64,000 bases of DNA from Escherichia coli (GCF_003018255.1 NZ_CP027440.1), one strand, 5' to 3'; positions 12,704-34,585 are shown, counted from the stretch's first letter. The notes: generated from the letters alone by a model not told the origin. Numbers and translations are program-made.

Positions 12704-12710
12704 GATTCAA

Positions 12711-13694: not shown

Positions 13695-13755
13695 GTCCCT
13701 TTCCTAAGTCGCGAAAGCTATCGGTTAAGTATAGCTTTTATCAGACTTTTCGTTT

Positions 13756-14835: not shown

Positions 14836-14846
14836 GTCACGTCTCT

Positions 14847-16132: not shown

Positions 16133-16264
16133 ACCGACTCCTGATTCAATTGTATGATGGTATTCATTGAACAGAACAATGGATCCCCACCGTTGCTGAC
16201 CGCAAAACATTTACGCGATTAATACTGCGCGTAATACAATTAAAAATCCAGCATTCTCAATCCA

Positions 16265-16771
16265 TTACGAAAGAAGATGGCATTGCGGGATAGCCAGACT
16301 TCCTCGTGTTAACGTACGACAAAATGCGTCATTGACAGCGGTTTCTCTGGAATGACAGATTTCATTCAGATAATGGATTAATGCTACAGCCCCACCAGCC
16401 GGACCAGTCAGCAAACGGGCATTGTGTTCTGCAATCACAATTACCGTCGTTCCTTCAGAATGAGCGAGCCATTCTGGTACGGATATCTCGCTTTCAGCTG
16501 CTATCAATAGCAGCACTGAATAATCGCCATACACATCTGATAACGATTGCACAGGCCCACCGTCAAGAGGCTGGAAATCTTGCTGCCAGTCCTCACCAAC
16601 AAAACAGGTTATTGGCAATATTTCAGCCAGATGTTTCGCCAGGTCCACATCTCCAGATAAGAGGCAAAAAAGAGCTATCGATTCGGGTTTTATCGTTTTC
16701 ATGCCTCTCGCCCTCCACTTAGTTTCCTGTAATGTCGGTCTGGTTGATGAGCCATGAAACAAGATTGCCAC
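16265..16771 (-). CDS. Hypothetical protein (168 codons, GTG start); possibly a decayed cbi remnant
   Basis: Sits where cbi genes would lie between the riboswitch leader and cobU. Two in-frame stop codons separate it from the in-frame upstream ORF 16817-17017. No family recognised. Confidence 0.3.
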   Translation of the reverse strand: MAILFHGSSTRPTLQETKWRARGMKTIKPESIALFCLLSGDVDLAKHLAEILPITCFVGEDWQQDFQPLDGGPVQSLSDVYGDYSVLLLIAAESEISVPEWLAHSEGTTVIVIAEHNARLLTGPAGGAVALIHYLNEICHSRETAVNDAFCRTLTRGSLAIPQCHLLS

Positions 16772-16930
16772 ACCTTAAGTGCAGCCCTGGTGCCTGTCGG
16801 CACTGCGATGAAAGAACTAAATGATGCCGCCATACCCTGATCCTTTCAGGGTGGTAGGGGTATAAAGACGCGCCTGTACTCTACTGGACGCTTCCGGGCA
16901 ACCCACTTCCCACCGAAGTTGTTGGTAATG

Positions 16931-17084
16931 ACTGACTGGCTGGTCTTCTGGCTTAGCGTCATCCTCTCCCGACCTTCCCAATCTCGCGATCAGTGGCATT
17001 TTCGGGTTTGTCAGCATTACAGCAGCGGGGGCTGCGAGGGATTTTCACCCTCTTCCCAGGCACAAATGTGCCACACCTGTCAGC
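16931..17084 (-). ncRNA. Cobalamin (AdoCbl) riboswitch-like leader element
   Basis: Minus-strand sequence contains AGGGTGAAAATCCC, GCAGCCCCCGCTGCTGTAATG, GCCACTG, GGGAAGG and a B12-box-like AAGCCAGAAGACCAGCC, with flanking CTGAC/GTCAG able to form P1; lies just downstream of pocR where the Salmonella cob leader lies. Confidence 0.65.
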
Positions 17085-17186
17085 GTATGTTATGAGCTGA
17101 TTTCACTTTTCCCATAACAGGTAAATAACGTTAATTATTCATTGCAGAGTTTATTTAAACCGTCCTCTTTTTTTGGGGCATTTACT

Positions 17187-18101
17187 CTATACCGTTTCCA
17201 TCGCCGCATTTTCATTCACTTGCTGTCGATACACCTGCGGCGTAACCTGATAAGTCTGACGGAAAACTTTGCAAAAATAACTGGTTTGCGAAAAACCTAA
17301 ATTACGCGCAATGCTGGCGATGCTCCAGTCACTATGGCACAGTAACTCACGAGCGCTGGCCATCCGTTGTTGGTTTACCCACGCATTAAACCCAATCCCA
17401 TGGTATTTCTTAAATAACTTGCTGAAATAATAAGGGCTTAGATAAACGTGCGAGGCGACATCTTCCAGACGCAAATCGTCTGATAAATGCGCATCAATAT
17501 AGCGTAAAGCTTTTTTCATTTTATTGTCGTGGGGACCAGGCGCACGAGTCTGGCGCACCGAATCTGACTGAAATTTGTTCTCTTTAATAACAACAAAATT
17601 GAGTTGTTTTTTGAGGCAATTTTCCACAATCAACTTCAACAAATCAGCAGAGGCCATAACTCTTGAGTAATCCATCTCTGGGACTTTGCGAAATTCATTA
17701 AGTAATTCGGGATCTGCCTGCCAGCAATCATCGACATTCAGAATATCGACCAAATCGACATCATCATTACGCAGACGAACTTGCCCGCACAATACAAAAC
17801 CAACTAAATGTCCGGCGATTACCAGTGGAATAGAGAAATCGGTTAATCCGGCATGACAGCGATAAATACAAGGCTGATCGGATTTAGAGGCTTCCAGGCC
17901 CCCACAACGATCGCTCATGCGACATCGAGTACTCAGCTGAGGGTGTTGCCGCATCATCTGACAAAATGGAGTGAAGTTAAACAGCTCGGAAATTTCATCG
18001 CCGTGAATATTGACCACGACAACCGCAAGGCTGGTCGCCTGCGCAAAATCCTGCGCGATTTTATTAATGAGTTCTGAATTAAGTGTCGCCGCAGAAATCA
18101 T
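17187..18101 (-). CDS. pocR: AraC-family transcriptional activator of the pdu/cob regulon
   Basis: 304-aa protein with a C-terminal AraC HTH domain and an N-terminus close to Salmonella PocR (MISAATLNSELINKIAQDFAQAT...). Confidence 0.9.
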   Translation of the reverse strand: MISAATLNSELINKIAQDFAQATSLAVVVVNIHGDEISELFNFTPFCQMMRQHPQLSTRCRMSDRCGGLEASKSDQPCIYRCHAGLTDFSIPLVIAGHLVGFVLCGQVRLRNDDVDLVDILNVDDCWQADPELLNEFRKVPEMDYSRVMASADLLKLIVENCLKKQLNFVVIKENKFQSDSVRQTRAPGPHDNKMKKALRYIDAHLSDDLRLEDVASHVYLSPYYFSKLFKKYHGIGFNAWVNQQRMASARELLCHSDWSIASIARNLGFSQTSYFCKVFRQTYQVTPQVYRQQVNENAAMETV

Positions 18102-18303
18102 GATAAAACCTCCCAGTTAATTTATTGTTATAGCAAAACAATTGTTTTACATTTAATCTTCACATCATCCTTGATGATTTACTGACGAGAAGCACAAAGG
18201 ACAATAACAAAAGCCTCCGTGAAGCGGGAGACTTTTTAATAAGTTCGGAAAGCAGATCACAAACAGTAAAAAAATAAACGTTTATAACTGCCAGATTATT
18301 TCG

Positions 18304-19113
18304 TTATTCGCTGATTTCTTTAGGCGTTACACTATTGACAGGTAAATTCTTTGCAATGAGATAGCGATAAATCGCCGCACCAACACATGCCCCAATGATC
18401 GGTGCAATAATGGGTACAATGAAATAAGGAATATTGCGTCCACCAGTCATCGCAATTTCCCCCCAACCCGCAAACCAGGTGAAAATTTTAGGTCCAAAAT
18501 CACGCGCTGGATTCATGGCAAAACCGGTTAATGGTCCGGTAGAAGCACCAATAACAGCAACCAGAATACCAATAAGTAAAGGCGCAAGCGGTCCTTTGGG
18601 TACGCCATTACCGTCATCGGTCAACGCCATAATCAACCCCATTAACATGGACGTTATGACCACTTCGACCAACGCAGCTTGCCATACATTAATCGCCGCT
18701 GCCGGATAAGTACTGAAGATACTGGCGAGTTGTAAACTTTCTGCGCTACCACGCACCATATTGTGAGCAGATTCAAAATCGGTAAATAAACTGCTGTAGA
18801 GAGAATATGCCAGAACCGCACCACCAAAGGCACCCGCTAATTGCGCCACACAAAATGGCAGCACTTTACGGGCTGGGAAAGAGGCAAACAGCCACAGAGC
18901 AATGGTAACTGCCGGGTTGAGATGAGCGCCGGAAATACCTGCCGTAAGGTAAACAGCAAGCGAAATCCCTAACCCCCAAATGATACAAATTTCCCACAGT
19001 CCCAGACTTGCCCCGGCAAGTTTCAGGGCGCACAAACAACCAATGCCAAAAAAGAGGAACAGTCCGGTGCCTAAAAACTCGGCAACGCATTGCGCCTTGA
19101 GTGAATCATTCAT
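18304..19113 (-). CDS. pduF: Propanediol diffusion facilitator (MIP/aquaporin family)
   Basis: Two NPA motifs (HLNPAVT, NPARDFGP); probable start MNDSLKAQC, with the listed ORF extended by 13 codons. Confidence 0.9.
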   Translation of the reverse strand: MNDSLKAQCVAEFLGTGLFLFFGIGCLCALKLAGASLGLWEICIIWGLGISLAVYLTAGISGAHLNPAVTIALWLFASFPARKVLPFCVAQLAGAFGGAVLAYSLYSSLFTDFESAHNMVRGSAESLQLASIFSTYPAAAINVWQAALVEVVITSMLMGLIMALTDDGNGVPKGPLAPLLIGILVAVIGASTGPLTGFAMNPARDFGPKIFTWFAGWGEIAMTGGRNIPYFIVPIIAPIIGACVGAAIYRYLIAKNLPVNSVTPKEISE

Positions 19114-19152
19114 AGTGACACCTTCTTTACGGAGTTTTTCTTTATCAGCCAA

Positions 19153-19623
19153 CTATGCGCTGATTGTTGTGTATACCGAGCGTAACTATAAAAAATTGCT
19201 CTGCAGAAAATATTGCCAACATGCATGACAGACTCGTGTAAAAATCGTGCTAACATAACAAATTATTGTCATTGCCGAATCATGCAACACAGCGTTAATC
19301 AGTGTTGAAAGTAATAATTACTGTCAAACTTTCACAATAAAAAATTGCCATCATGATATAATAAAATTGAAACAAATATCACAGTTCCTTCCTCGAACTA
19401 AACTCAACGAAATATTACTCGCGATTAAACTCACTAGCCAACGCAATTAATTCACATTGAAATATCCACAAAACAACTAATAAATTAACAACATATAGTT
19501 CATAAAAGCAATTTTATAATATTTGTTCTCTATTAATTTTCTCATTAGCCGATTAAGTCAGCCATTCTTTTTCCTCGCTTTTTTTTATAGTCATATCGTC
19601 AAAAAAATCCAGGCGAGGTCTTT
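19153..19623. promoter_or_regulatory. AT-rich divergent control region between pduF and pduA
   Basis: 470-bp AT-rich intergenic region between divergent pduF and pduA; regulatory sites inferred from position only. Confidence 0.5.
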
Positions 19624-19908
19624 ATGCAACAAGAAGCGTTAGGAATGGTAGAAACCAAAGGCTTAACTGCCGCCATAGAGGCCGCAGACGCCATGGTGAA
19701 GTCGGCAAATGTTTTGCTGGTCGGCTACGAAAAAATAGGTTCCGGGCTGGTGACCGTCATCGTTCGTGGTGATGTCGGGGCGGTAAAAGCGGCAACAGAC
19801 GCAGGTGCCGCAGCTGCGCGTAACGTCGGCGAAGTAAAAGCCGTACATGTTATTCCCCGCCCACATACCGATGTCGAAAAAATCTTACCAAAGGGAATTA
19901 ACCCATGA
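19624..19908 (+). CDS. pduA: BMC shell protein PduA
   Basis: 94-aa BMC-H domain protein ([30 protein letters not shown]...). Confidence 0.92.
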
Positions 19909-20717
19909 GCAGCAATGAACTGGTCAAACAGATCATGGCGCAGGTCATCGCTCGCGTAGCGACGCCAGAGCATGAGGTTCTCCCGAAAACCACTCATCAA
20001 ATACGAGAGACGGCTATGGCAGAAAAAAGCTGCACGTTAACAGAATTTGTTGGCACCGCTATTGGCGACACTGTAGGTCTGGTCATTGCGAACGTTGATA
20101 GCGCCCTGTTGGACGCGATGAAGCTTGAAAAACGCTATCGTTCCATTGGCATTCTGGGTGCGCGTATTGGCGCAGGGCCACACATTATGGCCGCTGATGA
20201 AGCGGTAAAAGCCACCAACACTGAAGTTATTAGCATTGAACTTCCTCGGGATACTAAAGGCGGTGCCGGACACGGCTCATTGATCCTCTTAGGTGGCAAC
20301 GATGTTTCCGACGTGAAACGCGGTATTGAAGTCGCCCTGAAAGAACTCGATCGGACCTTTGGCGATGTCTATGCCAACGAAGCCGGACATCTTGAGCTGC
20401 AATATACCGCCCGCGCCAGCTATGCACTGGAAAAAGCGTTTGGTGCACCATTGGGACGGGCTTGCGGCGTTATTGTCGGCGCTCCGGCTGCTGTGGGTGT
20501 TCTGATGGCAGACACCGCGCTGAAGTCCGCCAATGTGGATGTTGTGGCATACAGCTCCCCCGCTCAAGGCACCAGCTACAGCAATGAAGTCATTCTGATT
20601 ATCTCGGGTGACTCCGGCGCAGTCCGCCAGGCGGTCATCTCCGCACGCGAAATCGGTAAAACCGTGCTTTCGACTCTCGGCGATACACCGAAAAACGATC
20701 GCCCTTCCTACATCTGA
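19905..20717 (+). CDS. pduB: BMC shell protein PduB (tandem BMC domains)
   Basis: 270 aa; overlaps the pduA stop. Confidence 0.9.
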
Positions 20718-20735
20718 ATTCTCTGAGGCAGATTT

Positions 20736-22400
20736 ATGAGATCGAAAAGATTTGAAGCACTGGCAAAACGCCCGGTCAACCAGGACGGTTTCGTTAAAGA
20801 GTGGATTGAAGAAGGCTTCATTGCGATGGAAAGCCCGAACGATCCTAAACCGTCAATCAAAATTGTTAACGGCGTCGTTACCGAACTGGATGGAAAACCC
20901 GCCAGCCAGTTTGACCTGATCGACCACTTTATCGCCCGCTACGGCATCAATCTCGCGCGCGCCGAAGAAGTCATCGCGATGGATTCGGTAAAACTTGCCA
21001 ATATGTTGTGCGATCCAAATGTCAAACGTAGCGATATCGTTCCCCTTACCACAGCAATGACGCCTGCAAAAATCGTCGAAGTGGTTTCGCAGATGAACGT
21101 GGTAGAGATGATGATGGCGATGCAGAAAATGCGCGCCCGTCGAACACCATCACAACAGGCTCACGTCACCAACGTTAAAGATAACCCGGTACAAATTGCC
21201 GCCGACGCAGCTGAAGGCGCATGGCGCGGGTTTGATGAACAGGAAACCACCGTTGCCGTTGCTCGCTATGCACCGTTCAACGCCATCGCCCTGCTGGTCG
21301 GCTCACAGGTGGGACGTCCGGGCGTCTTGACCCAGTGTTCACTGGAAGAAGCCACCGAACTGAAACTCGGTATGTTAGGCCACACCTGTTACGCCGAAAC
21401 AATTTCTGTCTATGGTACAGAACCTGTTTTCACCGATGGCGATGATACCCCGTGGTCAAAAGGGTTTCTCGCGTCATCCTATGCGTCTCGCGGCTTAAAA
21501 ATGCGCTTTACTTCCGGCTCCGGCTCTGAAGTACAGATGGGTTACGCGGAAGGCAAATCAATGCTTTATCTCGAGGCTCGATGCATTTACATCACCAAAG
21601 CCGCAGGCGTTCAGGGTCTGCAGAATGGTTCGGTAAGCTGTATCGGTGTTCCATCAGCTGTGCCATCAGGCATCCGCGCAGTATTAGCGGAAAACTTAAT
21701 TTGCTCATCGCTGGATCTGGAATGCGCCTCCAGTAATGACCAGACCTTTACCCACTCGGATATGCGCCGTACCGCACGTTTCCTGATGCAATTTCTGCCA
21801 GGTACCGACTTTATCTCTTCCGGTTTTTCCGCTGTGCCGAACTACGACAACATGTTTGCTGGTTCAAACGAAGATGCTGAAGACTTCGATGATTACAACG
21901 TCATTCAGCGTGACCTGAAGGTTGATGGCGGCCTGCGACCAGTACGCGAAGAAGATGTTATCGCTATCCGCAATAAAGCCGCTCGCGCTTTACAGGCTGT
22001 CTTTGCCGGTATGGGACTACCGCCTATTACCGATGAAGAAGTCGAAGCGGCAACCTATGCCCACGGTTCAAAAGATATGCCTGAGCGCAATATTGTAGAA
22101 GACATCAAGTTCGCCCAGGAGATTATCAATAAAAACCGGAACAGCCTGGAAGTGGTGAAAGCCCTGGCGCAAGGCGGTTTTACCGATGTCGCCCAGGACA
22201 TGCTCAACATGCAAAAAGCAAAACTGACCGGCGATTATCTCCATACCTCAGCCATCATCGTCGATGACGGACAAGTGCTCTCTGCGGTCAATGACGTCAA
22301 TGATTACGCCGGACCGGCTACAGGTTACCGCCTGCAAGGGGAACGCTGGGAAGAGATCAAAAATATTCCCGGTGCACTTGATCCCAACGAAATTGACTAA
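20736..22400 (+). CDS. pduC: Propanediol dehydratase large subunit
   Basis: 554 aa, B12-dependent diol dehydratase alpha subunit. Confidence 0.92.
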   Translation: MRSKRFEALAKRPVNQDGFVKEWIEEGFIAMESPNDPKPSIKIVNGVVTELDGKPASQFDLIDHFIARYGINLARAEEVIAMDSVKLANMLCDPNVKRSDIVPLTTAMTPAKIVEVVSQMNVVEMMMAMQKMRARRTPSQQAHVTNVKDNPVQIAADAAEGAWRGFDEQETTVAVARYAPFNAIALLVGSQVGRPGVLTQCSLEEATELKLGMLGHTCYAETISVYGTEPVFTDGDDTPWSKGFLASSYASRGLKMRFTSGSGSEVQMGYAEGKSMLYLEARCIYITKAAGVQGLQNGSVSCIGVPSAVPSGIRAVLAENLICSSLDLECASSNDQTFTHSDMRRTARFLMQFLPGTDFISSGFSAVPNYDNMFAGSNEDAEDFDDYNVIQRDLKVDGGLRPVREEDVIAIRNKAARALQAVFAGMGLPPITDEEVEAATYAHGSKDMPERNIVEDIKFAQEIINKNRNSLEVVKALAQGGFTDVAQDMLNMQKAKLTGDYLHTSAIIVDDGQVLSAVNDVNDYAGPATGYRLQGERWEEIKNIPGALDPNEID

Positions 22401-22409
22401 GGGTGAGAA

Positions 22410-23078
22410 ATGGAAATTAACGAAAAATTACTGCGTCAGATTATCGAAGACGTGCTGGCAGAAATGCAAACCAGCGACAAGCCCGTTTCATTTCGCGCAC
22501 CTGTCTCTGCAACTGCCTCTTCCGCGCCAGATACCGGAAATTTTCTGACCGAAATTGGCGAAGCCCAACAAGGCACTCAGCAAGATGAAGTCATTATTGC
22601 TGTAGGCCCGGCGTTCGGCCTGGCGCAAACCGTCAATATCATCGGTATTCCGCATAAAAACATTTTGCGCGAAGTGATTGCCGGTATCGAAGAAGAAGGC
22701 ATTAAAGCCCGTGTGATTCGCTGCTTTAAATCGTCCGATGTCGCATTCGTAGCAGTCGAAGGCGATCGTCTTAGTGGTTCAGGTATTGCTATCGGTATTC
22801 AGTCGAAAGGCACAACGGTTATCCACCAGCAGGGACTTCCTCCCTTGTCTAACCTGGAACTTTTCCCACAAGCGCCTTTGTTGACGCTGGATACTTATCG
22901 TCAGATTGGCAAAAACGCCGCGCGTTATGCGAAGCGCGAGTCTCCACAACCGGTGCCGACCCTCAACGATCAAATGGCGCGGCCGAAATACCAGGCCAAA
23001 TCTGCCATTTTGCATATTAAAGAGACGAAGTACGTGGTCACTGGCAAAAAACCGCAAGAACTGCGCGTGACGTTTTAA
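22410..23078 (+). CDS. pduD: Propanediol dehydratase medium subunit
   Basis: 222 aa; position after pduC. Confidence 0.9.
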
Positions 23079-23092
23079 CAAAGGAAACCTTC

Positions 23093-23611
23093 ATGAATAC
23101 CGATGCAATTGAGTCGATGGTCAGGGACGTGTTGAACCGCATGAACAGTTTACAGGATGCAGCTCCTGTTTCTGCGGTCCCCAGCGAGTCAATACAGAGC
23201 GCCAAAGTGACGGATTACCCGCTGGCAAATAAACATCCGGAATGGGTTAAAACAGCAACCAATAAAACGCTCGACGATTTCACTCTGGAAAATGTGCTCA
23301 GCGATAACGTCACCGCCCAGGATATGCGCATTACCCCTGAAACATTGCGTATTCAGGCTGCGATTGCCAGAGATGCTGGTCGCGATCGCCTGGCGATGAA
23401 TTTTGAACGCGCCGCTGAGCTTACCTCAGTACCGGATGATCGCATCCTCGAAATCTACAATGCGTTACGCCCTTATCGTTCGACTAAGCAAGAGCTTATT
23501 GCCATTGCTGACGATCTTGAACGGCGTTATCAGGCCAAAATTTGTGCTGCATTTGTCCGTGAAGCTGCGGAACTTTATGTCGAGCGCAAAAAACTGAAAG
23601 GCGACGATTAA
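23093..23611 (+). CDS. pduE: Propanediol dehydratase small subunit
   Basis: 172 aa; position and size. Confidence 0.9.
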   Translation: MNTDAIESMVRDVLNRMNSLQDAAPVSAVPSESIQSAKVTDYPLANKHPEWVKTATNKTLDDFTLENVLSDNVTAQDMRITPETLRIQAAIARDAGRDRLAMNFERAAELTSVPDDRILEIYNALRPYRSTKQELIAIADDLERRYQAKICAAFVREAAELYVERKKLKGDD

Positions 23612-23620
23612 GGACGAACT

Positions 23621-25453
23621 ATGCGATATATAGCAGGCATTGATATCGGCAACTCATCAACAGAGATTGCGCTGGCAACGCTCAGTGCAACTGGAGAGTT
23701 GTCGTTCTTGAGTAGCGCCCTGGCGGAAACCACCGGAATTAAAGGTACGTTGCGTAACGTCCATGGTATTCAGGAGGCGCTCGCACAGGCAACGAAAAAA
23801 GTCGGCATCAATGTTAGCGATATTTCGCTTATTCGTATCAACGAAGCAACTCCGGTCATTGGTGATGTGGCGATGGAAACCATCACTGAAACCATCATCA
23901 CCGAATCAACCATGATCGGTCACAACCCGAAAACTCCGGGCGGAGTTGGGCTGGGCGTAGGGCTCACCATCACTCCGCAAGAGTTATTAACACGCCCGGC
24001 GGACACACCTTACATCCTGGTGGTGTCATCGGCATTTGATTTTGCCGATATCGCAACGATGATAAACGCCTCCGTACGAGCCGGATATCAGCTGACTGGC
24101 GTTATTCTGCAACGCGACGATGGCGTACTGGTCAATAACCGCCTGGAAATTCCTCTCCCTATTGTGGATGAAGTCCTCTACATCGATCGTATTCCGCTCG
24201 GCATGCTGGCTGCAATTGAAGTTGCCGTTCCCGGGAAAGTTATCGAAACCCTGTCTAACCCGTATGGGATTGCCACCGTTTTCGCCCTCAATGCTGAAGA
24301 GACTAAAAATATTGTTCCTGTCGCGCGGGCGCTAATCGGCAACCGTTCAGCAGTGGTAGTGAAAACGCCTTCTGGCGACGTTAAAGCCCGTTCGATACCC
24401 GCCGGAAATATCGAACTGCTTTCTGCCGGGCGCACAACGCGGGTTGATGTAGCTGCTGGTGCCGATGCCATTATGAAAGCGGTCGGTGAGTGCCCAAAAC
24501 TGGAAAACGTGACGGGAGAACCTGGCTCCAACATCGGCGGAATGCTGGAACATGTTCGCCAGACCATGGCTGAACTGACCAACAAACCCAGCAACGAAAT
24601 TTTTATTCAGGATTTGCTGGCGATAGATACCTCTGTCCCCGTCAACGTAACCGGTGGTCTGGCAGGTGAATTTTCACTGGAACAGGCTGTGGGTATTGCC
24701 TCTATGGTGAAATCCGACCGTCTGCAAATGGCGATGATCGCCAGTGAAATTAAGCAAAAACTGCATGTTGATGTTCAGGTCGGAGGCGCAGAAGCAGAAG
24801 CCGCCATTCAGGGGGCCTTGACTACCCCTGGAACCACACGTCCACTGGCAATTCTGGACTTAGGTGCAGGCTCTACCGATGCCTCCATCATCAATCAGAA
24901 AGGGGAAATAGTTGCCACTCACCTTGCGGGAGCGGGCGACATGGTAACGATGATTATCGCTCGTGAGCTGGGCTTAAATGATCGTTATCTCGCAGAAGAA
25001 ATCAAAAAGTACCCGTTGGCAAAAGTAGAAAGCCTGTTCCACTTACGCCATGAAGATGGCAGCGTTCAGTTCTTCCCTACTCCGCTGTCCCCTCATGTAT
25101 TTGCCCGCGTTTGTGTGGTGAAACCTGACGAACTGGTGCCTATTCTCGGTGATTTGACGCTGGAAAAAGTACGTGCTGTCCGTCGTAGTGCGAAAGAGCG
25201 TGTCTTCGTAACTAATGCCCTGCGCGCGCTACGTCAGGTAAGCCCTGCCGGAAATATTCGCGACATTCCGTTCGTCGTTCTGGTGGGTGGTTCTTCGCTG
25301 GATTTCGAAGTACCGCAATTGGTCACCGACGCGCTGGCACATTATCGACTGGTCGCCGGGCGGGGGAATATCCGTGGTAGCGAAGGTCCGCGCAATGCGG
25401 TAGCTACTGGGCTCCTCATCGCCTGGCACAAGGGGGCGATTCATGGAAAGTAA
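23621..25453 (+). CDS. pduG: Diol dehydratase reactivase large subunit
   Basis: 610 aa, ATPase-like reactivase. Confidence 0.9.
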   Translation: MRYIAGIDIGNSSTEIALATLSATGELSFLSSALAETTGIKGTLRNVHGIQEALAQATKKVGINVSDISLIRINEATPVIGDVAMETITETIITESTMIGHNPKTPGGVGLGVGLTITPQELLTRPADTPYILVVSSAFDFADIATMINASVRAGYQLTGVILQRDDGVLVNNRLEIPLPIVDEVLYIDRIPLGMLAAIEVAVPGKVIETLSNPYGIATVFALNAEETKNIVPVARALIGNRSAVVVKTPSGDVKARSIPAGNIELLSAGRTTRVDVAAGADAIMKAVGECPKLENVTGEPGSNIGGMLEHVRQTMAELTNKPSNEIFIQDLLAIDTSVPVNVTGGLAGEFSLEQAVGIASMVKSDRLQMAMIASEIKQKLHVDVQVGGAEAEAAIQGALTTPGTTRPLAILDLGAGSTDASIINQKGEIVATHLAGAGDMVTMIIARELGLNDRYLAEEIKKYPLAKVESLFHLRHEDGSVQFFPTPLSPHVFARVCVVKPDELVPILGDLTLEKVRAVRRSAKERVFVTNALRALRQVSPAGNIRDIPFVVLVGGSSLDFEVPQLVTDALAHYRLVAGRGNIRGSEGPRNAVATGLLIAWHKGAIHGK

Positions 25454-25793
25454 AGAGCGTGCACCAGCCATCGTTGTCATGGAGATCGGTGACTGTATCA
25501 CTACATGGGATGAAGTGCTTCTTGGCATTGAAGAGGAAGGTATTCCCTTTCGCATTCAACACATTCCGTCAGGTGAAGTTATCGATAGCGCCCGGCTGGC
25601 TGCTCGTCAATCTCCCCTGTTGGTTGGCATTGCCTGCGACCAGGAAAAACTGATTGTGCATTACAAAAACTTACCGGCATCAGCGCCACTGTTTACGCTG
25701 ATGTATCAACAAGATAACCATGCCCGGCGCAGCATTGGCTCTAACGCTGCCCGCCTGGTAAAAGGGATTCCCTTCCGGGAACTCAACTCATAA
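25443..25793 (+). CDS. pduH: Diol dehydratase reactivase small subunit
   Basis: 116 aa; overlaps the pduG stop. Confidence 0.88.
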
Positions 25794-25812
25794 TCCACAG
25801 GAGAAATGCAGT

Positions 25813-26088
25813 ATGAACAACGCACTAGGACTGGTTGAAACAAAAGGGTTAGTTGGCGCAATTGAAGCTGCAGATGCCATGGTTAAATCCGCCAACGTGC
25901 AACTGGTTGGCTATGAAAAGATTGGTTCGGGTCTGATTACGGTGATGGTCCGCGGTGATGTTGGTGCAGTAAAGGCCGCCGTTGATGCAGGAAGCGCTGC
26001 GGCAAGCGCAGTTGGCGAAGTGAAATCCTGCCATGTCATCCCGCGCCCACACAGTGATGTTGAGGCTATTTTACCTAAATCGGCATAA
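25813..26088 (+). CDS. pduJ: BMC shell protein PduJ
   Basis: 91-aa BMC-H protein, near-identical core to PduA. Confidence 0.92.
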
Positions 26089-26111
26089 CCCCATTTGCTA
26101 AGGAGCACAGC

Positions 26112-26534
26112 GTGAAGCAATCACTGGGATTACTTGAAGTCAGTGGTCTGGCACTCGCCATCAGTTGCGCAGATGCTATGGCAAAAGCCGCGTCCATCAC
26201 GCTGGTTGGCCTTGAGAAGACCAATGGCTCAGGCTGGACGCTCATCAAAATCACCGGTGACGTCGCCTCGGTTAATGCGGCGATCGCGACGGGAGCCAGT
26301 TTCGCCGGACAGCGAAATGGCCTCGTCGCACACAAAGTGATTGCCCGTCCGGGAGACGGCATTCTGCCCCACACAACTGAAGCATTGACTGTGACGGTTG
26401 AAACAAGCGAAACACCAGCAACAACCGTCATCTCAGAGATTATCAGTTGTAATTTGTGTCTTGACCCGGCATGTCAGCGGCAAAAAGGTGAGCCCCGCTC
26501 ACTTTGCCTGCACGCCAATAAGCGAGGGGAGTAA
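26112..26534 (+). CDS. pduK: BMC shell protein PduK
   Basis: 140 aa, GTG start, BMC domain plus Cys-containing C-terminal tail. Confidence 0.85.
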   Translation: MKQSLGLLEVSGLALAISCADAMAKAASITLVGLEKTNGSGWTLIKITGDVASVNAAIATGASFAGQRNGLVAHKVIARPGDGILPHTTEALTVTVETSETPATTVISEIISCNLCLDPACQRQKGEPRSLCLHANKRGE

Positions 26535-26536
26535 CA

Positions 26537-27169
26537 GTGGATAAACAAACCTTGCAGGAAACAGTGAGCCAGATTCTGGATGAGATGCGCGAGCGCCCTA
26601 TCCCTCTGGGTGTTTCCAGTCGTCATATTCATCTTTCAACAGCGGATTATTTGCGTCTTTTTCCTGAACAACCGATTAGCGAGAAAAAGCCGTTAATGCA
26701 ACCTGGCCAATTCGCTGCTGAACAGGTTGTTACGCTGGAGGGACCAAAAGGCAAATTACACAACGTTCGCTTGTTGGGGCCGCTACGCAATGCAAGCCAG
26801 GTGGAAATTTCCCGGACGGACGCCAGAACGTTAGGGATCACCGCCCCGCTACGCATGTCAGGCGATCTCAGCGGCACTCCGGGGATTCGTTTGATAAGCC
26901 CATTTGCGGAACTGGAGATCACATCTGGCGTCATTGTCGCGCAACGGCATATTCATATGTCTCCGCTGGATGCCCTGATTTATGGCGTTACGCATGGCGA
27001 TAAAGTGGCGGTTGCCATTGAAGGTGATGAGCGAGGACTGATATTCGAAAACGTCACTGTTCGCGTCTCTCCGGATATGCGTCTTGAAATGCATATTGAT
27101 ACCGATGAAGCCAACGCCGCAGGGGCTGATAGCCCTGACGTTTTTGCCACACTGGTGTCAGTGACATGA
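26537..27169 (+). CDS. pduL: Phosphate propanoyltransferase
   Basis: 210 aa. Confidence 0.88.
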   Translation: MDKQTLQETVSQILDEMRERPIPLGVSSRHIHLSTADYLRLFPEQPISEKKPLMQPGQFAAEQVVTLEGPKGKLHNVRLLGPLRNASQVEISRTDARTLGITAPLRMSGDLSGTPGIRLISPFAELEITSGVIVAQRHIHMSPLDALIYGVTHGDKVAVAIEGDERGLIFENVTVRVSPDMRLEMHIDTDEANAAGADSPDVFATLVSVT

Positions 27170-27657
27170 ATAACATGCTGATGCAACGTATTGTTGACGA
27201 AGTGGTTTTTCGCCTTAAACAACGTGCGGGAAAAACACTCGTGCTGACTGTTTTTCAACTGCGAGACGCCAGCGTTCAAGAGAGCGTTCATCAGTATGCG
27301 TCATTACAAATCCGATATGTCGATCTGCCGCTGCTGCGACAACTTGCGGAGAACGAAACGTCAGATCGAGCAGCAATCCAGATACACGAAGCGTTAGCCT
27401 GGGGAATGCACATTCAATTGTCGTTGCAGCGTCATTTCCTGAACGCCATTGAATTGAAGACTCTCGCCCGTCTACCGCTAAGCTGGTGCGACGAACAAGG
27501 GCAACCGATCTACCTACATCATGATCGACTTTTAAGTTATGTCGATATCGCACAGTTAAGCTCGGGAATATTGGTGTTACAGCGGAAATGTTGTGTGACC
27601 GCACTGGCTCGTGAAGCGGCAATTACCCGAAATATTCAGTTAATCAGGCAGGAGTAA
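27166..27657 (+). CDS. pduM: Microcompartment protein PduM
   Basis: 163 aa; position. Confidence 0.85.
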   Translation: MNNMLMQRIVDEVVFRLKQRAGKTLVLTVFQLRDASVQESVHQYASLQIRYVDLPLLRQLAENETSDRAAIQIHEALAWGMHIQLSLQRHFLNAIELKTLARLPLSWCDEQGQPIYLHHDRLLSYVDIAQLSSGILVLQRKCCVTALAREAAITRNIQLIRQE

Positions 27658-27660
27658 CCT

Positions 27661-27936
27661 ATGCATCTGGCTCGAGTCACTGGCGCGGTAGTATCCACGC
27701 AAAAATCACCTTCTCTGATCGGGAAAAAACTGCTGCTGGTTCGCCAGGTCAGTGCTGACGGCGAACTGCCTCTCACGCCATTAACCGGCGACGAAGTTGC
27801 CGTTGATTCCGTCGGCGCAGGCGTTGGTGAGTTGGTACTCCTCAGCAGTGGTTCCAGCGCCAGACATGTGTTTTCCGGCCCTAACGAAGCCATCGACCTG
27901 GCAGTGGTCGGCATTGTCGATACGCTTTCGCGCTAA
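27661..27936 (+). CDS. pduN: BMC vertex (pentamer) protein PduN
   Basis: 91 aa, EutN/CcmL-type ([15 protein letters not shown]...). Confidence 0.9.
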
Positions 27937-27947
27937 GGAGCTGAAAG

Positions 27948-28955
27948 ATGGCAATTTATACCCGAACAGGTGATTCAGGAAGTACGTCTTTATTTACCGG
28001 ACAGCGCGTCAGCAAAACTCATCTACGTGTCGAAACCTATGGCACGCTGGATGAACTGAACGCGACACTCAGTCTGTGTTATTGCGCCACCGCCATCGAA
28101 AGCCATCGCATCTTACTGGAAGCCATTCAACAACAGATATTTTGGTTTTGCGCCGAACTCGCCAGTGAAAGCGAACAGCCGTCAGCGCAGCAGCGTTACA
28201 TCGGTACGGAAGAAATTGCCGCGCTGGAAAACGCGATCGATAGCGCAATGAACGCCGCCCCCCCGGTTCACAGCTTCATTCTGCCTGGTCGATGTGAAGC
28301 TGCAAGCCGCATGCATTTCGCCCGCACGGTGGCTCGACGGGCTGAAAGACGTCTGGTTGAACTGACAACAGAAACCACCGTCCGGAATGTTTTGCTGCAC
28401 TATATCAACCGACTTTCCGATTGCCTGTATGCCCTCGCCCGCGTGGAAGACAACGTTGCTCATCAAAACCTGATGATTCAGGAAATCACAAAACGTTATC
28501 ACGAAGCCAACCACACACCAGCATTGAAGGAACGCACAATGCCGCTCACTTTTCAGGATCTTCACCAGCTCATTCGTAGTGCGGCAATGCGCGCAGATGA
28601 ACTGCATATTCCCGTTGTCATCAGCATTGTCGATGCCAACGGAACAGAAAGTGTTACCTGGCGGATGCCTGATGCCCTGTTGGTCAGCAGTGAACTGGCA
28701 CCGAAAAAAGCCTGGACCGCCGTGGCGATGAAAACGGCAACCCACAAACTTGCTGATACCGTGCAACCCGGCGCGCCGCTTTACGGGCTCGAAAGCCATA
28801 TGCAAGGCAAAGTCGTCACTTTTGGTGGCGGCTTCCCCCTCTGGCGTGACGGAAAATTGCTTGGCGGGCTTGGCATCAGCGGCGGTAGCGTTGAACAAGA
28901 CATGGATATTGCCCAAAGCGCAATGGCGGCAATTAACGTGGGAGTAAACCAATGA
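27948..28955 (+). CDS. pduO: Corrinoid adenosyltransferase PduO
   Basis: 335 aa; PduO-type ATP:cob(I)alamin adenosyltransferase N-domain. Confidence 0.9.
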   Translation: MAIYTRTGDSGSTSLFTGQRVSKTHLRVETYGTLDELNATLSLCYCATAIESHRILLEAIQQQIFWFCAELASESEQPSAQQRYIGTEEIAALENAIDSAMNAAPPVHSFILPGRCEAASRMHFARTVARRAERRLVELTTETTVRNVLLHYINRLSDCLYALARVEDNVAHQNLMIQEITKRYHEANHTPALKERTMPLTFQDLHQLIRSAAMRADELHIPVVISIVDANGTESVTWRMPDALLVSSELAPKKAWTAVAMKTATHKLADTVQPGAPLYGLESHMQGKVVTFGGGFPLWRDGKLLGGLGISGGSVEQDMDIAQSAMAAINVGVNQ

Positions 28956-30337
28956 ATAACTCTGAATTAGAAACACTGATCCGCAATATTCTGCGTGAGC
29001 AGCTTGTCCCCGCTACGCAACGAGCGCAAAGAAACGCTATTTTCCAGACTGTTGATGAAGCGGTCTGCGCAGCACACCAGGCCTTTTTACGCTTTCAACA
29101 GTGCCCGCTTAAAACCCGTAGCGCCATTATCAGCGCCATTCGCGAAGAATTAATGCCCCGCCTTACCGAACTGGCAGAAGAAAGCGCCAAAGAAACGGGG
29201 ATGGGAAATAAAGAAGATAAGTACCTAAAAAACAAAGCGGCACTCGATAACACGCCAGGAATTGAAGATTTAACCACCACTGCACTAACCGGTGATGGTG
29301 GCATGGTTTTGTTTGAATACTCCCCGTTTGGGGTGATTGGCTCGGTCACGCCAAGCACCAATCCCACGGAAACCATCATTAACAACAGCATCAGCATGCT
29401 GGCAGCAGGTAATAGCGTCTACTTCAGTCCACACCCGGGAGCCAAATACGTTTCGTTAAAACTGATTACCACAATCGAAGACATCGCGTTTCGCTGTAGT
29501 GGCATTCACAACCTGATCGTTACCGTATCTGAACCAACCTTTGCCGCAACCGAACAAATGATGGCGCACCCTAAAATCAGCGTTCTGGCGATTACCGGTG
29601 GCCCGGGGATCGTCGCCATGGGAATGAAAAGTGGCAAGAAAGTGATTGGTGCCGGTGCGGGTAACCCACCCTGCATTGTCGATGAAACGGCGGATATTGT
29701 GAAAGCCGCCGAAGATATCATCAACGGCGCTTCATTTGATTACAACCTGCCGTGTATCGCTGAAAAAAGCCTGATTGTCGTAGCATCAGTGGCAGAGTAT
29801 TTAATTCAGCAGATGCAAAGTTTTGGCGCGCTTCTTCTTAACTATGAGCAAACGGAGAAATTGCGTGCAATTTGCCTGCCAGACGGTAGCGCCAACAAAA
29901 AACTGGTTGGGAAAAGCCCATCAGCCTTGCTGGAAGCAGCGGGCCTCCCTTTGCCCGCAAAAGCGCCGCGCCTACTGATTGCTGTTGTTGACGCCGATGA
30001 TAGTTGGGTTACTTGTGAACAACTGATGCCAATGCTGCCCATTGTGAAGGTCAACGATTTTGACAGCGCTCTCGCCCTGGCGTTGAAAGTGGAAGACGGC
30101 TTGCACCACACGGCAATTATGCACTCGCAGAACGTCTCACGACTCAACCTTGCCGCGCGCGTTATGCAAACCTCAATCTTTGTCAAAAACGGCCCCTCCT
30201 GGGCGGGTATTGGCGTCGGCGGCGAAGGCTTTACGACCTTTACCATTGCAACACCGACTGGAGAGGGTACAACGTCAGCACGGACTTTTGCCCGCTCACG
30301 ACGCTGCGTGTTAACCAGCGGCTTTTCCATTCGCTAG
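28952..30337 (+). CDS. pduP: CoA-acylating propionaldehyde dehydrogenase
   Basis: 461-aa aldehyde dehydrogenase-family protein. Confidence 0.9.
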   Translation: MNNSELETLIRNILREQLVPATQRAQRNAIFQTVDEAVCAAHQAFLRFQQCPLKTRSAIISAIREELMPRLTELAEESAKETGMGNKEDKYLKNKAALDNTPGIEDLTTTALTGDGGMVLFEYSPFGVIGSVTPSTNPTETIINNSISMLAAGNSVYFSPHPGAKYVSLKLITTIEDIAFRCSGIHNLIVTVSEPTFAATEQMMAHPKISVLAITGGPGIVAMGMKSGKKVIGAGAGNPPCIVDETADIVKAAEDIINGASFDYNLPCIAEKSLIVVASVAEYLIQQMQSFGALLLNYEQTEKLRAICLPDGSANKKLVGKSPSALLEAAGLPLPAKAPRLLIAVVDADDSWVTCEQLMPMLPIVKVNDFDSALALALKVEDGLHHTAIMHSQNVSRLNLAARVMQTSIFVKNGPSWAGIGVGGEGFTTFTIATPTGEGTTSARTFARSRRCVLTSGFSIR

Positions 30338-30347
30338 AGAAACGGAA

Positions 30348-31460
30348 ATGAAAACTTTTTCACTGCAGACGCGTTTATACAGCGGAACGGGAAGTCTCAA
30401 CATACTGAACCGTTTCACGAATAGGCACATCTGGATTATTTGCGACGTCTTTCTGGCACACTCACCACTCATTGACACGTTGCATCAGGCGCTGCCCGAC
30501 AGTAATCGTCTCAGTATTTTTAGCGAAATAACGCCCGACCCAACTATCCAGACCGTGGTGAAAGGCATTGCGCAAATGCAGACTTTACGCCCGGATGTGG
30601 TTATCGGTTTTGGCGGCGGTTCTGCCCTGGACGCTGCAAAAGCGATTGTCTGGTTTGGTCGCCAGTGTGGCATTGAAATTGAAACCTGCGTAGCCATTCC
30701 TACCACCAGCGGTACCGGTTCCGAAGTGACCAGTGCTTGTGTCATCAGCGATCCTGAGAAAGGGATTAAATATCCCCTTTTCGATAATGCACTTTATCCG
30801 GATATCGCGATCCTTGATCCATCTTTGGTCGTCAGCGTGCCACCGGCGATAACGGCCAATACCGGGATGGATGTTTTAACCCATGCGCTTGAAGCTTATG
30901 TTTCTCCCCGCGCCAGCGACTTCACGGATGCACTGGTCGAAAAAGCCGTGCAAATTGTTTTTCAATACCTGCCCACTGCAGTGAAGAAAGGCGATTGTCT
31001 TTCCACCCGTGGCAAAATGCATAATGCATCGACGCTTGCAGGAATAGCCTTTAGCCAGGCCGGACTCGGTTTAAACCATGCACTTGCTCATCAACTCGGC
31101 GGACAGTTTCATCTGCCGCACGGCCTGGCGAATGCGCTCCTGCTCACGGCGGTAATCCGCTTTAATGCTGGCGATCCGCGCGCAGCCAAACGCTACGCCC
31201 GGCTGGCGAAAACGTGCCATTTATGCCCGGACAACGCCAATGACACCGCCAGCCTGAATGCACTTATTCAACATATTGAACAGCTTAAAACAACCTGTAC
31301 GCTGCCAACACTTGCCAATGCGCTGAAAGAAAAAAAAGCAGAATGGTCAATACGCATACCAGATATGGTTCAGGCAGCGCTGGCGGATGCAACGTTGCGT
31401 ACCAACCCGCGTGCGGCTGATGCCTCCGCGATTGCAGAACTGCTCGAGGAGTTGTTATGA
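30348..31460 (+). CDS. pduQ: 1-propanol dehydrogenase (iron-containing ADH)
   Basis: 370-aa Fe-ADH family protein. Confidence 0.9.
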   Translation: MKTFSLQTRLYSGTGSLNILNRFTNRHIWIICDVFLAHSPLIDTLHQALPDSNRLSIFSEITPDPTIQTVVKGIAQMQTLRPDVVIGFGGGSALDAAKAIVWFGRQCGIEIETCVAIPTTSGTGSEVTSACVISDPEKGIKYPLFDNALYPDIAILDPSLVVSVPPAITANTGMDVLTHALEAYVSPRASDFTDALVEKAVQIVFQYLPTAVKKGDCLSTRGKMHNASTLAGIAFSQAGLGLNHALAHQLGGQFHLPHGLANALLLTAVIRFNAGDPRAAKRYARLAKTCHLCPDNANDTASLNALIQHIEQLKTTCTLPTLANALKEKKAEWSIRIPDMVQAALADATLRTNPRAADASAIAELLEELL

Positions 31461-32800
31461 ACGTCGAGTTAACCTCCTGCGATGACCAGACCATCCGCGA
31501 GCGAGTACAAGCAGCAGGTGTCGTGGGTGCTGGCGGCGCAGGTTTTCCAACCCATATTAAGCTACAAGCGCGTGTTGACACGTTCCTGGTGAATGCGGCG
31601 GAATGCGAACCAATGTTGAAAGTGGATCAACAGTTAATGGTGCAGCAAGCCAGCCGCCTGCTTCGCGGTGTTCACTATGCTATGAAAGCCACCGGGGCCA
31701 GTAGCGGAATCATCGCGCTGAAAGAAAAATATCAACGGGCAATAAACGCACTCACACCCCTATTACCACCGGATATCCGCCTGCATATTTTGCCCGATGT
31801 TTACCCCGCAGGAGACGAAGTGCTGACCATCTGGATGGCAACTGGTCGCCGCGTCCCACCCGCGGCATTACCCGTTAGCGTCGGTGTGGTGGTCAATAAT
31901 GTTCAAACCGTACTTAATATTGCCAGAGCCGTCGAGCAACAGTATCCAGTGACGCGCCGCACACTCACTATTAATGGTGCAGTGGCGAAACCAATAACGG
32001 TAACCGTCCCCATCGGCATGTCTTTACGTGAAGTCCTGGCGCTGGCGGGCGGCGCAACAGTAGATGCGCCTGGTTTTATCAATGGCGGGCCGATGATGGG
32101 AAGTTTGATCACATCGCTCGACACCCCCGTCAGCAAAACCACTGGCGGCTTGCTGGTTTTACCCAACTCTCATTCACTGATCCAACTTCGAATGCAGAAT
32201 GACCGCAGCGTACTTACCGTCGCGAAAACTGTTTGTGAGCAATGCCGCTTGTGTACCGATCTCTGCCCACGTCATTTAGTCGGTCACGAACTGGCCCCCC
32301 ATTTATTAGTACGTGCGGTTAACTACCAACAGCTCGCTACGCCACAACTGTTACTGACGGCGCTCACCTGTTCGGAGTGCAACGTCTGCGCCAGCGTCGC
32401 CTGTCCGGTAGGAATTTCACCAATGCGCATAAACCGCCTGCTTAAGCAGGAATTACGCGCACAAAATCTCCGCTACGAAGGTGCCTTAAATCCTGCTGAT
32501 CCCATGGCAAATTATCGACTGATTCCCGTAAAACGGCTGGTAACCAGACTGGGCCTAATCCCGTGGTATCAGGATGCGCCATTGTCTGAACAGGTGCCTC
32601 AGACCGAAAAAGTGACGTTATTGTTACGCCAGCACATCGGTGCCAGCGCAATTGCGTGTGTACAAAAAGGCGATCGCGTCGTTCATGGGCAATGTGTAGG
32701 TCAAATTCCACACGGCACATTAGGTGCCCCGATTCATGCCAGTATTGATGGCATGGTCAGCGATGTGACAGAAAACGCAATTACGCTTGTGAGAGGTTAA
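31457..32800 (+). CDS. pduS: Cobalamin reductase PduS (Fe-S flavoprotein)
   Basis: 447 aa with two Cys clusters ([25 protein letters not shown]). Confidence 0.9.
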
Positions 32801-32802
32801 CC

Positions 32803-33357
32803 ATGTCGAAAGCGGTAGGTATTTTAGAACTTAGCAGTATCGCGAAAGGGATGGAAACCGGCGACGCCATGCTGAAAAGCGCCAACGTTGAGTTACTGGT
32901 CAGCAAAACGCTATGCCCCGGAAAATTTCTGCTGATGCTCGGTGGCGATGTGGGCGCGGTGCAACAGGCCATCAACAGCGGTGCTTCCGTTGCTGGTGAA
33001 ATGCTGGTCGACAGTCTTGTCCTGCCGAATATTCATCCCAGTCTCCTTTCTGCAATCAGCGGACTGAACCATGTTGAGCAGCACCGGGCTGTCGGCGTAG
33101 TCGAAACCTGGAGTGTCGCTGCCTGCATTGACGCTGCCGATTGTGCTGTCAAAGCTGCGAATGTCATTCTCGTTCGCGTACATATGGCTTTTGGCATTGG
33201 CGGAAAATGCTACATGGTGGTTGCTGGCGATATTTCAGATGTTAATAACGCGGTCTCTGTCGCCAGCGAGCGTGCGGGAGAAAAAGGTTTGTTGGTCTAT
33301 CGGTCGGTGATTGCCCGTCCACATGAAGCCATGTGGCGTCAGATGGTGGAGGGATAA
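32803..33357 (+). CDS. pduT: BMC shell protein PduT (tandem BMC)
   Basis: 184 aa. Confidence 0.9.
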
Positions 33358-33707
33358 TGACAACTCAGCACACAACTGAACGGATGATTCAGGAATATGT
33401 CCCTGGTAAGCAGGTCACGCTGGCACATGTCATCGCCAATCCAGGGAAGGATCTGTTTAAGAAATTGGGTTTACCAGACACCGTTTCTGCTATTGGCATT
33501 CTGACGATTACCCCCAGCGAAGCATCTATCATCGCATGCGATATCGCCACAAAATCAGGCGCTGTAGAGATCGGTTTTCTTGATCGTTTTACCGGTGCCG
33601 TAGTGCTGACTGGTGATGTTTCTGCTATTGAATATGCACTTAGCCAGGTTACCCGTACGCTGGGTGAAATGATGCGCTTTACCGCCTGCCCCATTACGCG
33701 GACCTGA
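33357..33707 (+). CDS. pduU: BMC shell protein PduU
   Basis: 116 aa from [18 protein letters not shown]; start overlaps the pduT stop (taATG). Confidence 0.88.
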
Positions 33708-33711
33708 CGTT

Positions 33712-34155
33712 ATGCAACGTATGATGCTTATCGGCCCCAGCCAGTGCGGAAAAACGTCACTCACGCAATGTCTGCGTGGCGAAAATATCCATTATCAGAA
33801 AACGCAGGCAATCGTCTGGTCCCCGACCACCATTGATACACCAGGCGAATACCTCGAAAACCGCAGCCTTTACAGTGCATTGTTGGTCAGTGCCTGCGAA
33901 GCAGACATTATCGCACTGGTACTTAATGCGGACGCACCGTGGTCACCTTTTTCGCCAGGCTTTACCTCGTCAATGAATCGCCCGGTCATTGGAGTAGTAA
34001 CCAAAGCAGATTTAGCCAGTATGGAACAAATATCTTTGGTGAAATGTTGGTTACGGGAAGCTGGAGCGCACAACGTGTTAGTAACCAGTGCGGTTAATAA
34101 CAATGGAGTTACAGAACTTTTTGCCTTGCTGCATACAGAAGAAGGCTGTCGCTAA
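33712..34155 (+). CDS. pduV: Small GTPase-like protein PduV/EutP family
   Basis: 147 aa with P-loop [10 protein letters not shown]. Confidence 0.88.
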
Positions 34156-34255
34156 TTTCGATAGGTTCTCAGATGAGAATGATGACGGTGATACACAGAT
34201 AAGAATCAATGAGCAATGAGGGTTGCCGGGCAACCCTCATTGAATAAAACAGGAA

Positions 34256-34585
34256 TTACTTCGCTTCGCCGTTTTTCATTTCGCCCATAGCTTTCAGCTT
34301 TTTGGAGATATCGCGGCGTTCTTTGGAGAGCTCGGCATTTTTGATGATGTAATCGTCAACGCGATCTTCATAGTCACCTTTCATGCTGGCGATGATGCCC
34401 TGGATTGCTTCAACGCTCATCCCTGGCTTGATGTAATCGCTCAGGTTGTCCAGCAGCAGGACGCGCTTCTGGTTGTCACGGATCTTTTTCTCAACGTCCT
34501 GAATTTCACGTTGCAGTTTGTTCTTACGACGGAACAGACGAACAAATTCCAGTACGTCCTGGAATGAAGGCTTGGTAGTTTCCAT
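34256..34585 (-). CDS. yeeX: DUF496 family protein YeeX
   Basis: 109 aa from [30 protein letters not shown]; the listed ORF is extended upstream. Confidence 0.88.

Follow-up and report, generated by a model that had tools for sequence, protein, structure and literature searches.

The pdu operon for 1,2-propanediol use is a well-documented accessory trait of Escherichia coli, tied to adherent-invasive E. coli (AIEC), to the dog-associated sequence type ST372 and to gut inflammation. Strains that carry it, such as AIEC LF82 and CUMT8, ST372 dog isolates and 2014C-3338, have it at the same chromosomal site and in the same order: cobTSU, a relic of cbiG (cbiG'), a B12 riboswitch, pocR, pduF, pduA-V and tmaR. 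The operon is enriched in adherent-invasive strains (PMC4509574), and the E. coli version is reported to have 77.5% nucleotide identity over 94% of the Salmonella LT2 operon (PMC9997745). Here we analyze the pdu locus in a 64,000-nucleotide (nt) stretch of E. coli DNA (GCF_003018255.1, NZ_CP027440.1), called the window throughout.

Citrobacter has a fuller cob-pdu region, as does Salmonella enterica LT2, which we compare from the literature. The neighbours are the same, ldtA-cobTSU on one side and yeeX-yeeA on the other, and so are the pocR-pduF-pduA...V order, the seven shell genes, the putative encapsulation peptides and the riboswitch leader. In addition, Citrobacter has pduW and pduX between pduV and yeeX, and its riboswitch and cobU are separated by the 17 genes of the cbiA-cbiP block; both sets are missing from the window. 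In E. coli K-12 the cobU-tmaR interval has the same flanks, with the cryptic prophage CP4-44 in place of riboswitch-pocR-pdu.

From the gene content, intactness, selection, junctions and distribution described below, we put the probability at about 0.9 that the window holds a native Escherichia cob-pdu region encoding a functional Pdu metabolosome that runs on salvaged, not self-made, B12. The locus is ordinary and already known, being the norm for pdu+ Escherichia and published (PMC4509574, PMC9997745, PMC9220930, PMC7360682). It has little importance as a discovery, and the by-products of its analysis are clarifications. K-12 lost the locus secondarily and still has its two edges, so the textbook line that 'E. 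coli lost cob-pdu' needs qualifying. Strains of E. coli with pdu would rely on corrinoids from other gut microbes, a dependence that is relevant to gut competition shaped by propanediol.

Gene content and integrity

An open reading frame (ORF) map of window 14000-37000, with translations, gives pocR, pduF and 19 colinear genes, pduABCDEGHJKLMNOPQSTUV, or 21 genes at window 17187-34155 (Table 1). None has an internal stop, intra-operon gaps run from -11 to +23 bp, and no frameshift was found in the pdu translations. A preliminary description of the window had listed these genes as present and intact, with seven shell genes among them, while allowing for frameshifts that it might have missed; its list agrees with the ORFs and their family matches throughout.

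Ten proteins (PocR, PduB, PduC, PduD, PduE, PduG, PduL, PduM, PduP and PduV) match NCBIfam models over their full length and above the curated cut-offs. The remaining Pdu proteins have domain-level NCBIfam matches, the one for PduO covering its N-terminal domain. Gene lengths equal those in the Prokaryotic Genome Annotation Pipeline (PGAP) annotation of E. coli 2014C-3338. They also equal those of the Citrobacter orthologues, to which identity is 54-100% at the amino acid (aa) level, except that PduK is 16 aa shorter (140 aa vs 156).

All three classes of shell protein of the bacterial microcompartment (BMC) are represented in the locus. PduA, PduJ, PduK and PduU have a single BMC domain (hexamer class, BMC-H), PduB and PduT have tandem domains (BMC-T), and PduN is a EutN/CcmL pentamer (BMC-P). 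The enzymes they would enclose or serve are present as well. The dehydratase PduCDE and its reactivase PduGH are full length and above curated cut-offs, and they are accompanied by the aldehyde-processing core of PduP, PduQ (an iron-dependent alcohol dehydrogenase, Fe-ADH) and PduL, by the corrinoid recycling pair PduO and PduS, and by the divergent pocR-pduF pair. PduD (16 residues) and PduP (MNNSELETLIRNILREQL) have amphipathic N-terminal extensions, which we take to resemble the encapsulation peptides of Salmonella. The C-terminal Cys motif of PduK, CNLCLDPAC...C, and Cys38 of PduT are kept.

On every feature that sequence can address, the locus would be classed as an enterobacterial Pdu microcompartment locus. 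By the same reckoning it would not be classed as a complete Salmonella/Citrobacter cob-pdu regulon, which is defined by pduWX and cbiA-P, both missing from the window. In each of these respects it matches pdu+ E. coli as annotated and published so far.

The pduV-yeeX junction

With the pduV stop at 34155 and the end of the yeeX (tmaR) ORF at 34256, the gap is exactly 100 bp, where the preliminary description had estimated about 100. Blastn homology between the window and Citrobacter ends at 34092, within pduV, and restarts at 34260, at the yeeX stop. In Citrobacter, pduW and pduX occupy about 2.2 kb in place of this spacer; they encode a 404-aa protein matching the acetate/propionate kinase equivalog at 837 bits and a 288-aa GHMP kinase. 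Queries with Citrobacter PduW and PduX gave no tblastn match in the 64-kb window or in any Escherichia locus examined.

We scanned for PduV in one genome per species and tabulated the gene order 3' of pduV at the resulting 29 loci. The scan returned Escherichia and Citrobacter with its allies, and not Salmonella, for which the peptide patterns were too specific; the comparator is Citrobacter. All 21 Citrobacter-group loci (Citrobacter, Pseudocitrobacter, Pluralibacter and related metagenome-assembled genomes, MAGs) read pduV-pduW-pduX-yeeX-yeeA, whereas in every Escherichia locus (two of E. coli, one each of E. whittamii and E. albertii, and a relic in Escherichia sp.) pduV leads directly to yeeX. 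The absence of pduW and pduX from this locus, and the value of comparing it with Citrobacter, had been anticipated in the preliminary description. An E. coli-like pduV also occurs on two contigs assigned to MAGs of Citrobacter (100% identity) and Segatella copri (92%), probably through contamination of the bins by E. coli DNA.

A sensitive blastn search with Citrobacter pduW and pduX, able to reach down to roughly 65-70% DNA identity, covered 5,426 complete E. coli genomes; it found pduX-like DNA in none and pduW-like DNA in one. The exception is strain 48, from deer (NZ_CP166879.1, 5.9 Mb), where the match lies in a second, island-borne pdu locus. That locus is divergent and includes a pduW-like kinase with 75.5% nucleotide identity to Citrobacter. 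It stands on an island rich in insertion sequences (IS), next to an additional copy of btuB that has a riboswitch of its own, with cdiA toxin genes in the vicinity (region 1-21188).

The preliminary description had suggested checking for ackA or tdcD as the replacement for the missing kinase. tdcD is present in 5,391 of the 5,426 genomes (99.4%), and its product shares 44% identity with Citrobacter PduW. AckA and TdcD each phosphorylate propionate reversibly. PduX is needed when B12 is made de novo or from cobyric acid and not otherwise, and cobinamide salvage can do without it. It is therefore coherent that cbi and pduX were lost together, and loss of pduW is tolerable. Substitution by TdcD as propionate kinase is plausible, and so is compensation by AckA. 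TdcD is also the sole PduW homologue, again at 44% identity, in the pdu+ Crohn's isolate ZvL2 (PMC7360682). PduW and PduX are cytosolic and unencapsulated in Salmonella (PMC7181861), so their absence should leave the microcompartment unaffected.

Cobalamin genes

We assembled the complete Citrobacter pocR-riboswitch-cbiABCDETFGHJKLMNQOP-cobUST-ldtA region via chained exact-protein look-ups and mapped the window onto it. Window 17083-16826 is the cob leader with its riboswitch, at 85% nucleotide identity to Citrobacter, and extends 8 nt into cbiA. Window 16702-16367 corresponds to CbiG residues 1-119, at 43% aa identity to Citrobacter CbiG. From 16163 follow the last 31 nt of cbiP and then cobU. 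The 17 Citrobacter Cbi proteins, searched by tblastn against the 64-kb window, gave nothing credible but CbiG residues 1-119. From these scars we infer two deletions, one spanning cbiA-cbiF and the other reaching from the 3' part of cbiG through cbiP, which removed the cbi operon, and by prediction the corrin pathway with it, and left, upstream of cobUST, the riboswitch and a relic ORF of 145 aa. The statement in the preliminary description that there are no cbi genes holds in that no functional cbi gene was found in the window; its account of 16213-17186 omits the cbiG' relic, the riboswitch and the 31 nt of cbiP.

Directly left of the locus, at 13756-16132, cobU, cobS and cobT are intact and pass the NCBIfam cut-offs. 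With no functional cbi genes and an intact adjacent cobUST, propanediol use would therefore depend on imported corrinoid, as had been proposed. The predicted genotype is cobinamide-salvaging, capable of nucleotide-loop assembly only (a category of PMC6461909), and cobinamide salvage by E. coli has been demonstrated (PMC6461909). The genes cobC, btuR and btuBCDF lie outside the window. The E. albertii pdu locus has intact pdu genes and the same cbi and pduWX deletions, junctions, cbiG relic and riboswitch. Unlike the window, which keeps all three cob genes, E. albertii (two genomes, 6435-7877) has cobU as a fragmented pseudogene and cobT deleted, with cobS intact; cobinamide salvage is therefore lost there, and complete cobalamin would be needed.

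A protein homologue search with the cbiG relic returned only Escherichia and Shigella relics and no full-length CbiG. The relic is labelled 'hypothetical' or 'CbiG' in other strains and is LF82_328 'CbiG' in LF82 (PMC4509574). Compared with E. albertii, identity is 93.7% in the riboswitch aptamer, 90.5% in the expression platform and 72-79% in the flanking relic DNA. The ratio of nonsynonymous to synonymous substitution rates (dN/dS) of the relic against E. albertii is 0.40, and its ORF is open across Escherichia. We considered the relic as a functional truncated protein and rejected this, given its 43% identity to CbiG, its dN/dS and a nucleotide identity equal to that of noncoding spacers; we treat it as a relic with some residual constraint.

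A tentative idea, to which we give somewhat less than even odds, is that the riboswitch and the cbiG' ORF form a B12-responsive, PocR-driven leader for cobUST in pdu+ Escherichia, lost in K-12-type strains when CP4-44 removed it. It comes from two observations: the riboswitch is better conserved than its surroundings, and the relic ORF stays open with a dN/dS below neutrality.

Distribution and origin

The 18,043-bp interval (16213-34255) is colinear in one piece, at up to 98.9% identity, in 636 of the 5,426 complete E. coli genomes, about one in eight. The pduCDEG core alone is found in 642, chromosomal in every case. Nearly all genomes (5,423) match part of the interval, at a median of two places per genome, which fits retention of both edges of the locus. 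The best match, 2014C-3338, has identical genes in its PGAP annotation; to one side of them lie cobTSU, a 'hypothetical protein' and a cobalamin riboswitch, and to the other tmaR-yeeA-sbmC-dacD. The window carries the standard E. coli pdu locus, differing from other pdu+ strains by an allelic divergence of ~1.1-2%. The closest complete RefSeq E. coli genomes reach ~98.5-98.9% in three stretches of the window (1-13700, 16213-34255 and 54500-62600), and the lineage of the source strain appears to be unrepresented among the 5,426 genomes.

K-12 MG1655 is homologous to the window at 16213-16436, part of the cbiG relic, and at 33973-34255, which includes the last 183 bp of pduV. In K-12 the pduV fragment is annotated yoeF (20750-20932 of the K-12 stretch), and the DNA just upstream of cobU (7766-8061) includes the part of the cbiG relic. 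Between them the 12.7-kb CP4-44 (flu, yeeR/S/T, cbeA/cbtA, IS5, IS2) stands in place of window 16437-33972, and K-12 has no riboswitch, no pocR and no intact pdu genes. Since both edges are kept, CP4-44 must have replaced a pdu locus, and K-12 comes from an ancestor that was pdu+ and had the same two junctions. The preliminary description had correctly named CP4-44 as the occupant of this slot, and pduV and cbiG relics lie at its two edges. The annotated boundaries of CP4-44 coincide with the edges of the replaced locus.

The junctions are common to E. albertii and E. whittamii and so indicate that all three putative deletions (cbiA-cbiF, the 3' part of cbiG through cbiP, and pduW-pduX) predate the divergence of Escherichia species. 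pduW, pduX and cbi are missing at this site throughout the genus Escherichia, and their absence is no peculiarity of this strain. That the pared-down locus was inherited vertically and then lost repeatedly is supported by three things: the junctions shared between species, a lack of mobility genes, and a divergence from Citrobacter (54-100% for the Pdu proteins) that brackets that of the flanking core genes (81% for CobT, 79% for YeeA).

The patchy distribution in E. coli could also reflect a recent horizontal import from another enteric genus on a genomic island, but K-12, which is pdu-negative, keeps both edges of the locus. An analysis of ST372 reads pdu presence and absence as repeated, multiple acquisition linked to neighbouring islands and to the O-antigen (PMC9997745). 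The O-antigen cluster lies ~20 kb from the pdu locus, close enough to make co-transfer by homologous recombination feasible. Strain 48, moreover, shows that a truly foreign pdu island exists. The locus in the window differs from such an island in that no integrase, IS or repeat boundaries were found at it, its junctions recur unchanged in E. albertii and E. whittamii, and its divergence from Citrobacter is within the range of the flanking CobT and YeeA. We consider such an import unlikely. The same evidence means that any transfer was an exchange of alleles within the species: re-gain within E. coli by homologous recombination is plausible, and O-antigen exchange could carry pdu along.

The O-antigen cluster of the window (54500-62635) has a low GC content of 28-36%. 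Its closest matches are O185-type wzx/wzy clusters at 98.8%, only six genomes cover it in full, and a JUMPstart element lies at 62597-62635.

Selection and function

Measured against E. albertii, dN/dS is 0.05 for pocR, 0.08 for pduF, 0.00 for pduA, 0.02 for pduB and 0.01 for pduC. Such low ratios argue that the pdu genes are maintained by selection, and in AIEC CUMT8 a pduC mutant does not grow on 1,2-propanediol (PMC9220930). Both findings, together with the intactness of all 21 ORFs, are at odds with a silent, decaying remnant that is heading for loss as in K-12, its propanediol catabolism gone. One would cite for decay that ~88% of E. coli have lost the locus, that the adjacent cbi genes are reduced to relics and that one study found low pduC transcription in AIEC in vivo (PMC9220930); yet the true relic nearby has a dN/dS of 0.40, against 0.00-0.08 in the pdu genes. 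We regard decay as very unlikely.

Hardly credible is an enzyme core that is mainly a glycerol dehydratase of the 3-hydroxypropionaldehyde/1,3-propanediol pathway: diol dehydratases do accept glycerol, and PduC and PduD match subfamily models of the 'propanediol/glycerol family', but PduE passes the propanediol-dehydratase equivalog (357 bits vs a cut-off of 282) while the DhaB3 model fails (156 vs 285), the locus includes PocR and PduF, and the genes of the operon are ordered as in Citrobacter and Salmonella. The growth phenotypes of E. coli, too, are on 1,2-propanediol (PMC9220930).

Some considerations weigh against a native and functional Pdu metabolosome all the same. Function in the source strain is predicted from sequence and from the literature on other pdu+ E. 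coli, and the kinase substitution is likewise predicted. To these we add the low pduC transcription in vivo, the repeated acquisition proposed for ST372 and the detection limit of the DNA-level search for pduW and pduX. The window covers 64 kb, and a distant copy of pduW, pduX or cbi could lie elsewhere in the source genome.

If the metabolosome works as we propose, its enzyme roles, taken from work on Salmonella and Citrobacter, and its regulation would be as follows. In response to 1,2-propanediol, PocR would activate the divergent pduF and pduA-V transcripts, and PduF would let the diol in. PduABJKNTU and PduM would form the shell, into which PduD and PduP would be directed by their N-terminal peptides. 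Inside it, PduCDE would convert the diol to propionaldehyde, PduP and PduQ would convert the aldehyde to propionyl-CoA and 1-propanol, and PduL would yield propionyl-phosphate, while PduGH, PduS and PduO would reactivate the dehydratase and re-adenosylate cobalamin. The last step, cytosolic and yielding propionate and ATP from propionyl-phosphate, would in place of PduW use AckA and/or TdcD. The corrin ring would be imported, either as cobalamin or as cobinamide to be finished by CobU, CobS and CobT. PduX, a threonine kinase for the aminopropanol linker, would have lost its role along with de novo synthesis.

Feature map and additional observations

Table 1. Features of the cob-pdu region, in window coordinates
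Feature	Position	Strand	Evidence
cobT, nicotinate-nucleotide:dimethylbenzimidazole (DMB) phosphoribosyltransferase, corrinoid salvage	13756..14835	-	NF000996 463 bits; 80.6% aa identity to Citrobacter CobT
cobS, adenosylcobinamide-GDP ribazoletransferase	14847..15590	-	TIGR00317 305 bits; 85.8% aa identity to Citrobacter CobS
cobU, adenosylcobinamide kinase/guanylyltransferase	15587..16132	-	NF004469 246 bits; 84% aa identity to Citrobacter CobU
cbiP relic, last ~31 nt; distal edge of second cbi deletion	16133..16163	-	blastn homology to Citrobacter region resumes at its 15494, 31 nt before cobU start
cbiG' relic ORF, 145 aa, N-terminal third of cobalt-precorrin-5A hydrolase, decaying	16265..16702	-	NF004463 profile positions 1-125/351, E=1e-18
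cob operon leader, cobalamin riboswitch aptamer (16921-17095) and expression platform, to former cbiA start codon	16826..17095	-	Rfam RF00174 107.5 bits, model 1-189/189
pocR, AraC-family pdu/cob activator	17187..18101	-	NF047788 552 bits (cut-off 500)
STnc230 small RNA (sRNA) match between pocR and pduF	18162..18245	+	Rfam RF02075 76.3 bits
pduF, propanediol diffusion facilitator (MIP channel), 269 aa	18304..19113	-	TIGR00861 224 bits; PGAP
pduF/pduA divergent control region, 510 bp	19114..19623	.	intergenic in ORF map
pduA (BMC-H shell) and pduB (tandem-BMC shell)	19624..20717	+	PduA BMC-family, PGAP name; PduB equivalog NF011944 473 bits
pduCDE, B12-dependent diol dehydratase	20736..23611	+	NF011979 1074, NF011616 392, NF011971 357 bits
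pduGH, diol dehydratase reactivase	23621..25793	+	TIGR04491 956 bits; PGAP
pduJ and pduK, shell proteins	25813..26534	+	BMC matches
pduL (phosphotransacylase), pduM, pduN (pentameric vertex protein)	26537..27936	+	NF011652 255, NF011957 247 bits; EutN/CcmL
pduO, corrinoid adenosyltransferase	27948..28955	+	TIGR00636 160 bits
pduP (CoA-acylating propionaldehyde dehydrogenase) and pduQ (1-propanol dehydrogenase)	28952..31460	+	NF011927 716 bits; Fe-ADH
pduS, cobalamin reductase (RnfC-like Fe-S flavoprotein)	31457..32800	+	TIGR01945 256 bits; PGAP
pduT (tandem BMC) and pduU (permuted BMC)	32803..33707	+	TIGR02526; EutS-type NF012012 134 bits
pduV, EutP/PduV GTPase, last operon gene	33712..34155	+	TIGR02528 187 bits
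pduV-yeeX spacer, 100 bp, with perfect hairpin 34214-34242	34156..34255	.	inverted repeat from self-hit
tmaR (yeeX), conserved right flank	34256..34585	-	NF040881 187 bits

A consensus promoter scan of the sequence gave fewer promoter-like sites than shuffles and was uninformative, and a terminator scan missed the hairpin in the pduV-yeeX spacer; we used neither. The STnc230 match lies inside the 202-bp pocR-pduF spacer, antiparallel to both genes, and is overlapped on the opposite strand by a terminator-like hairpin.

Left of the cob genes, window 236-12700 has four tRNA matches (at 236, 8398, 10219 and 12628), and reference genomes have tRNA-Asn (asnT/W/U/V) at the corresponding sites. Their neighbours are yeeJ, shiA, amn, yeeO, cbl, nac and ldtA. 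No island stands at any of the four tRNAs, and the region follows the standard core order, found in 3,965 genomes.

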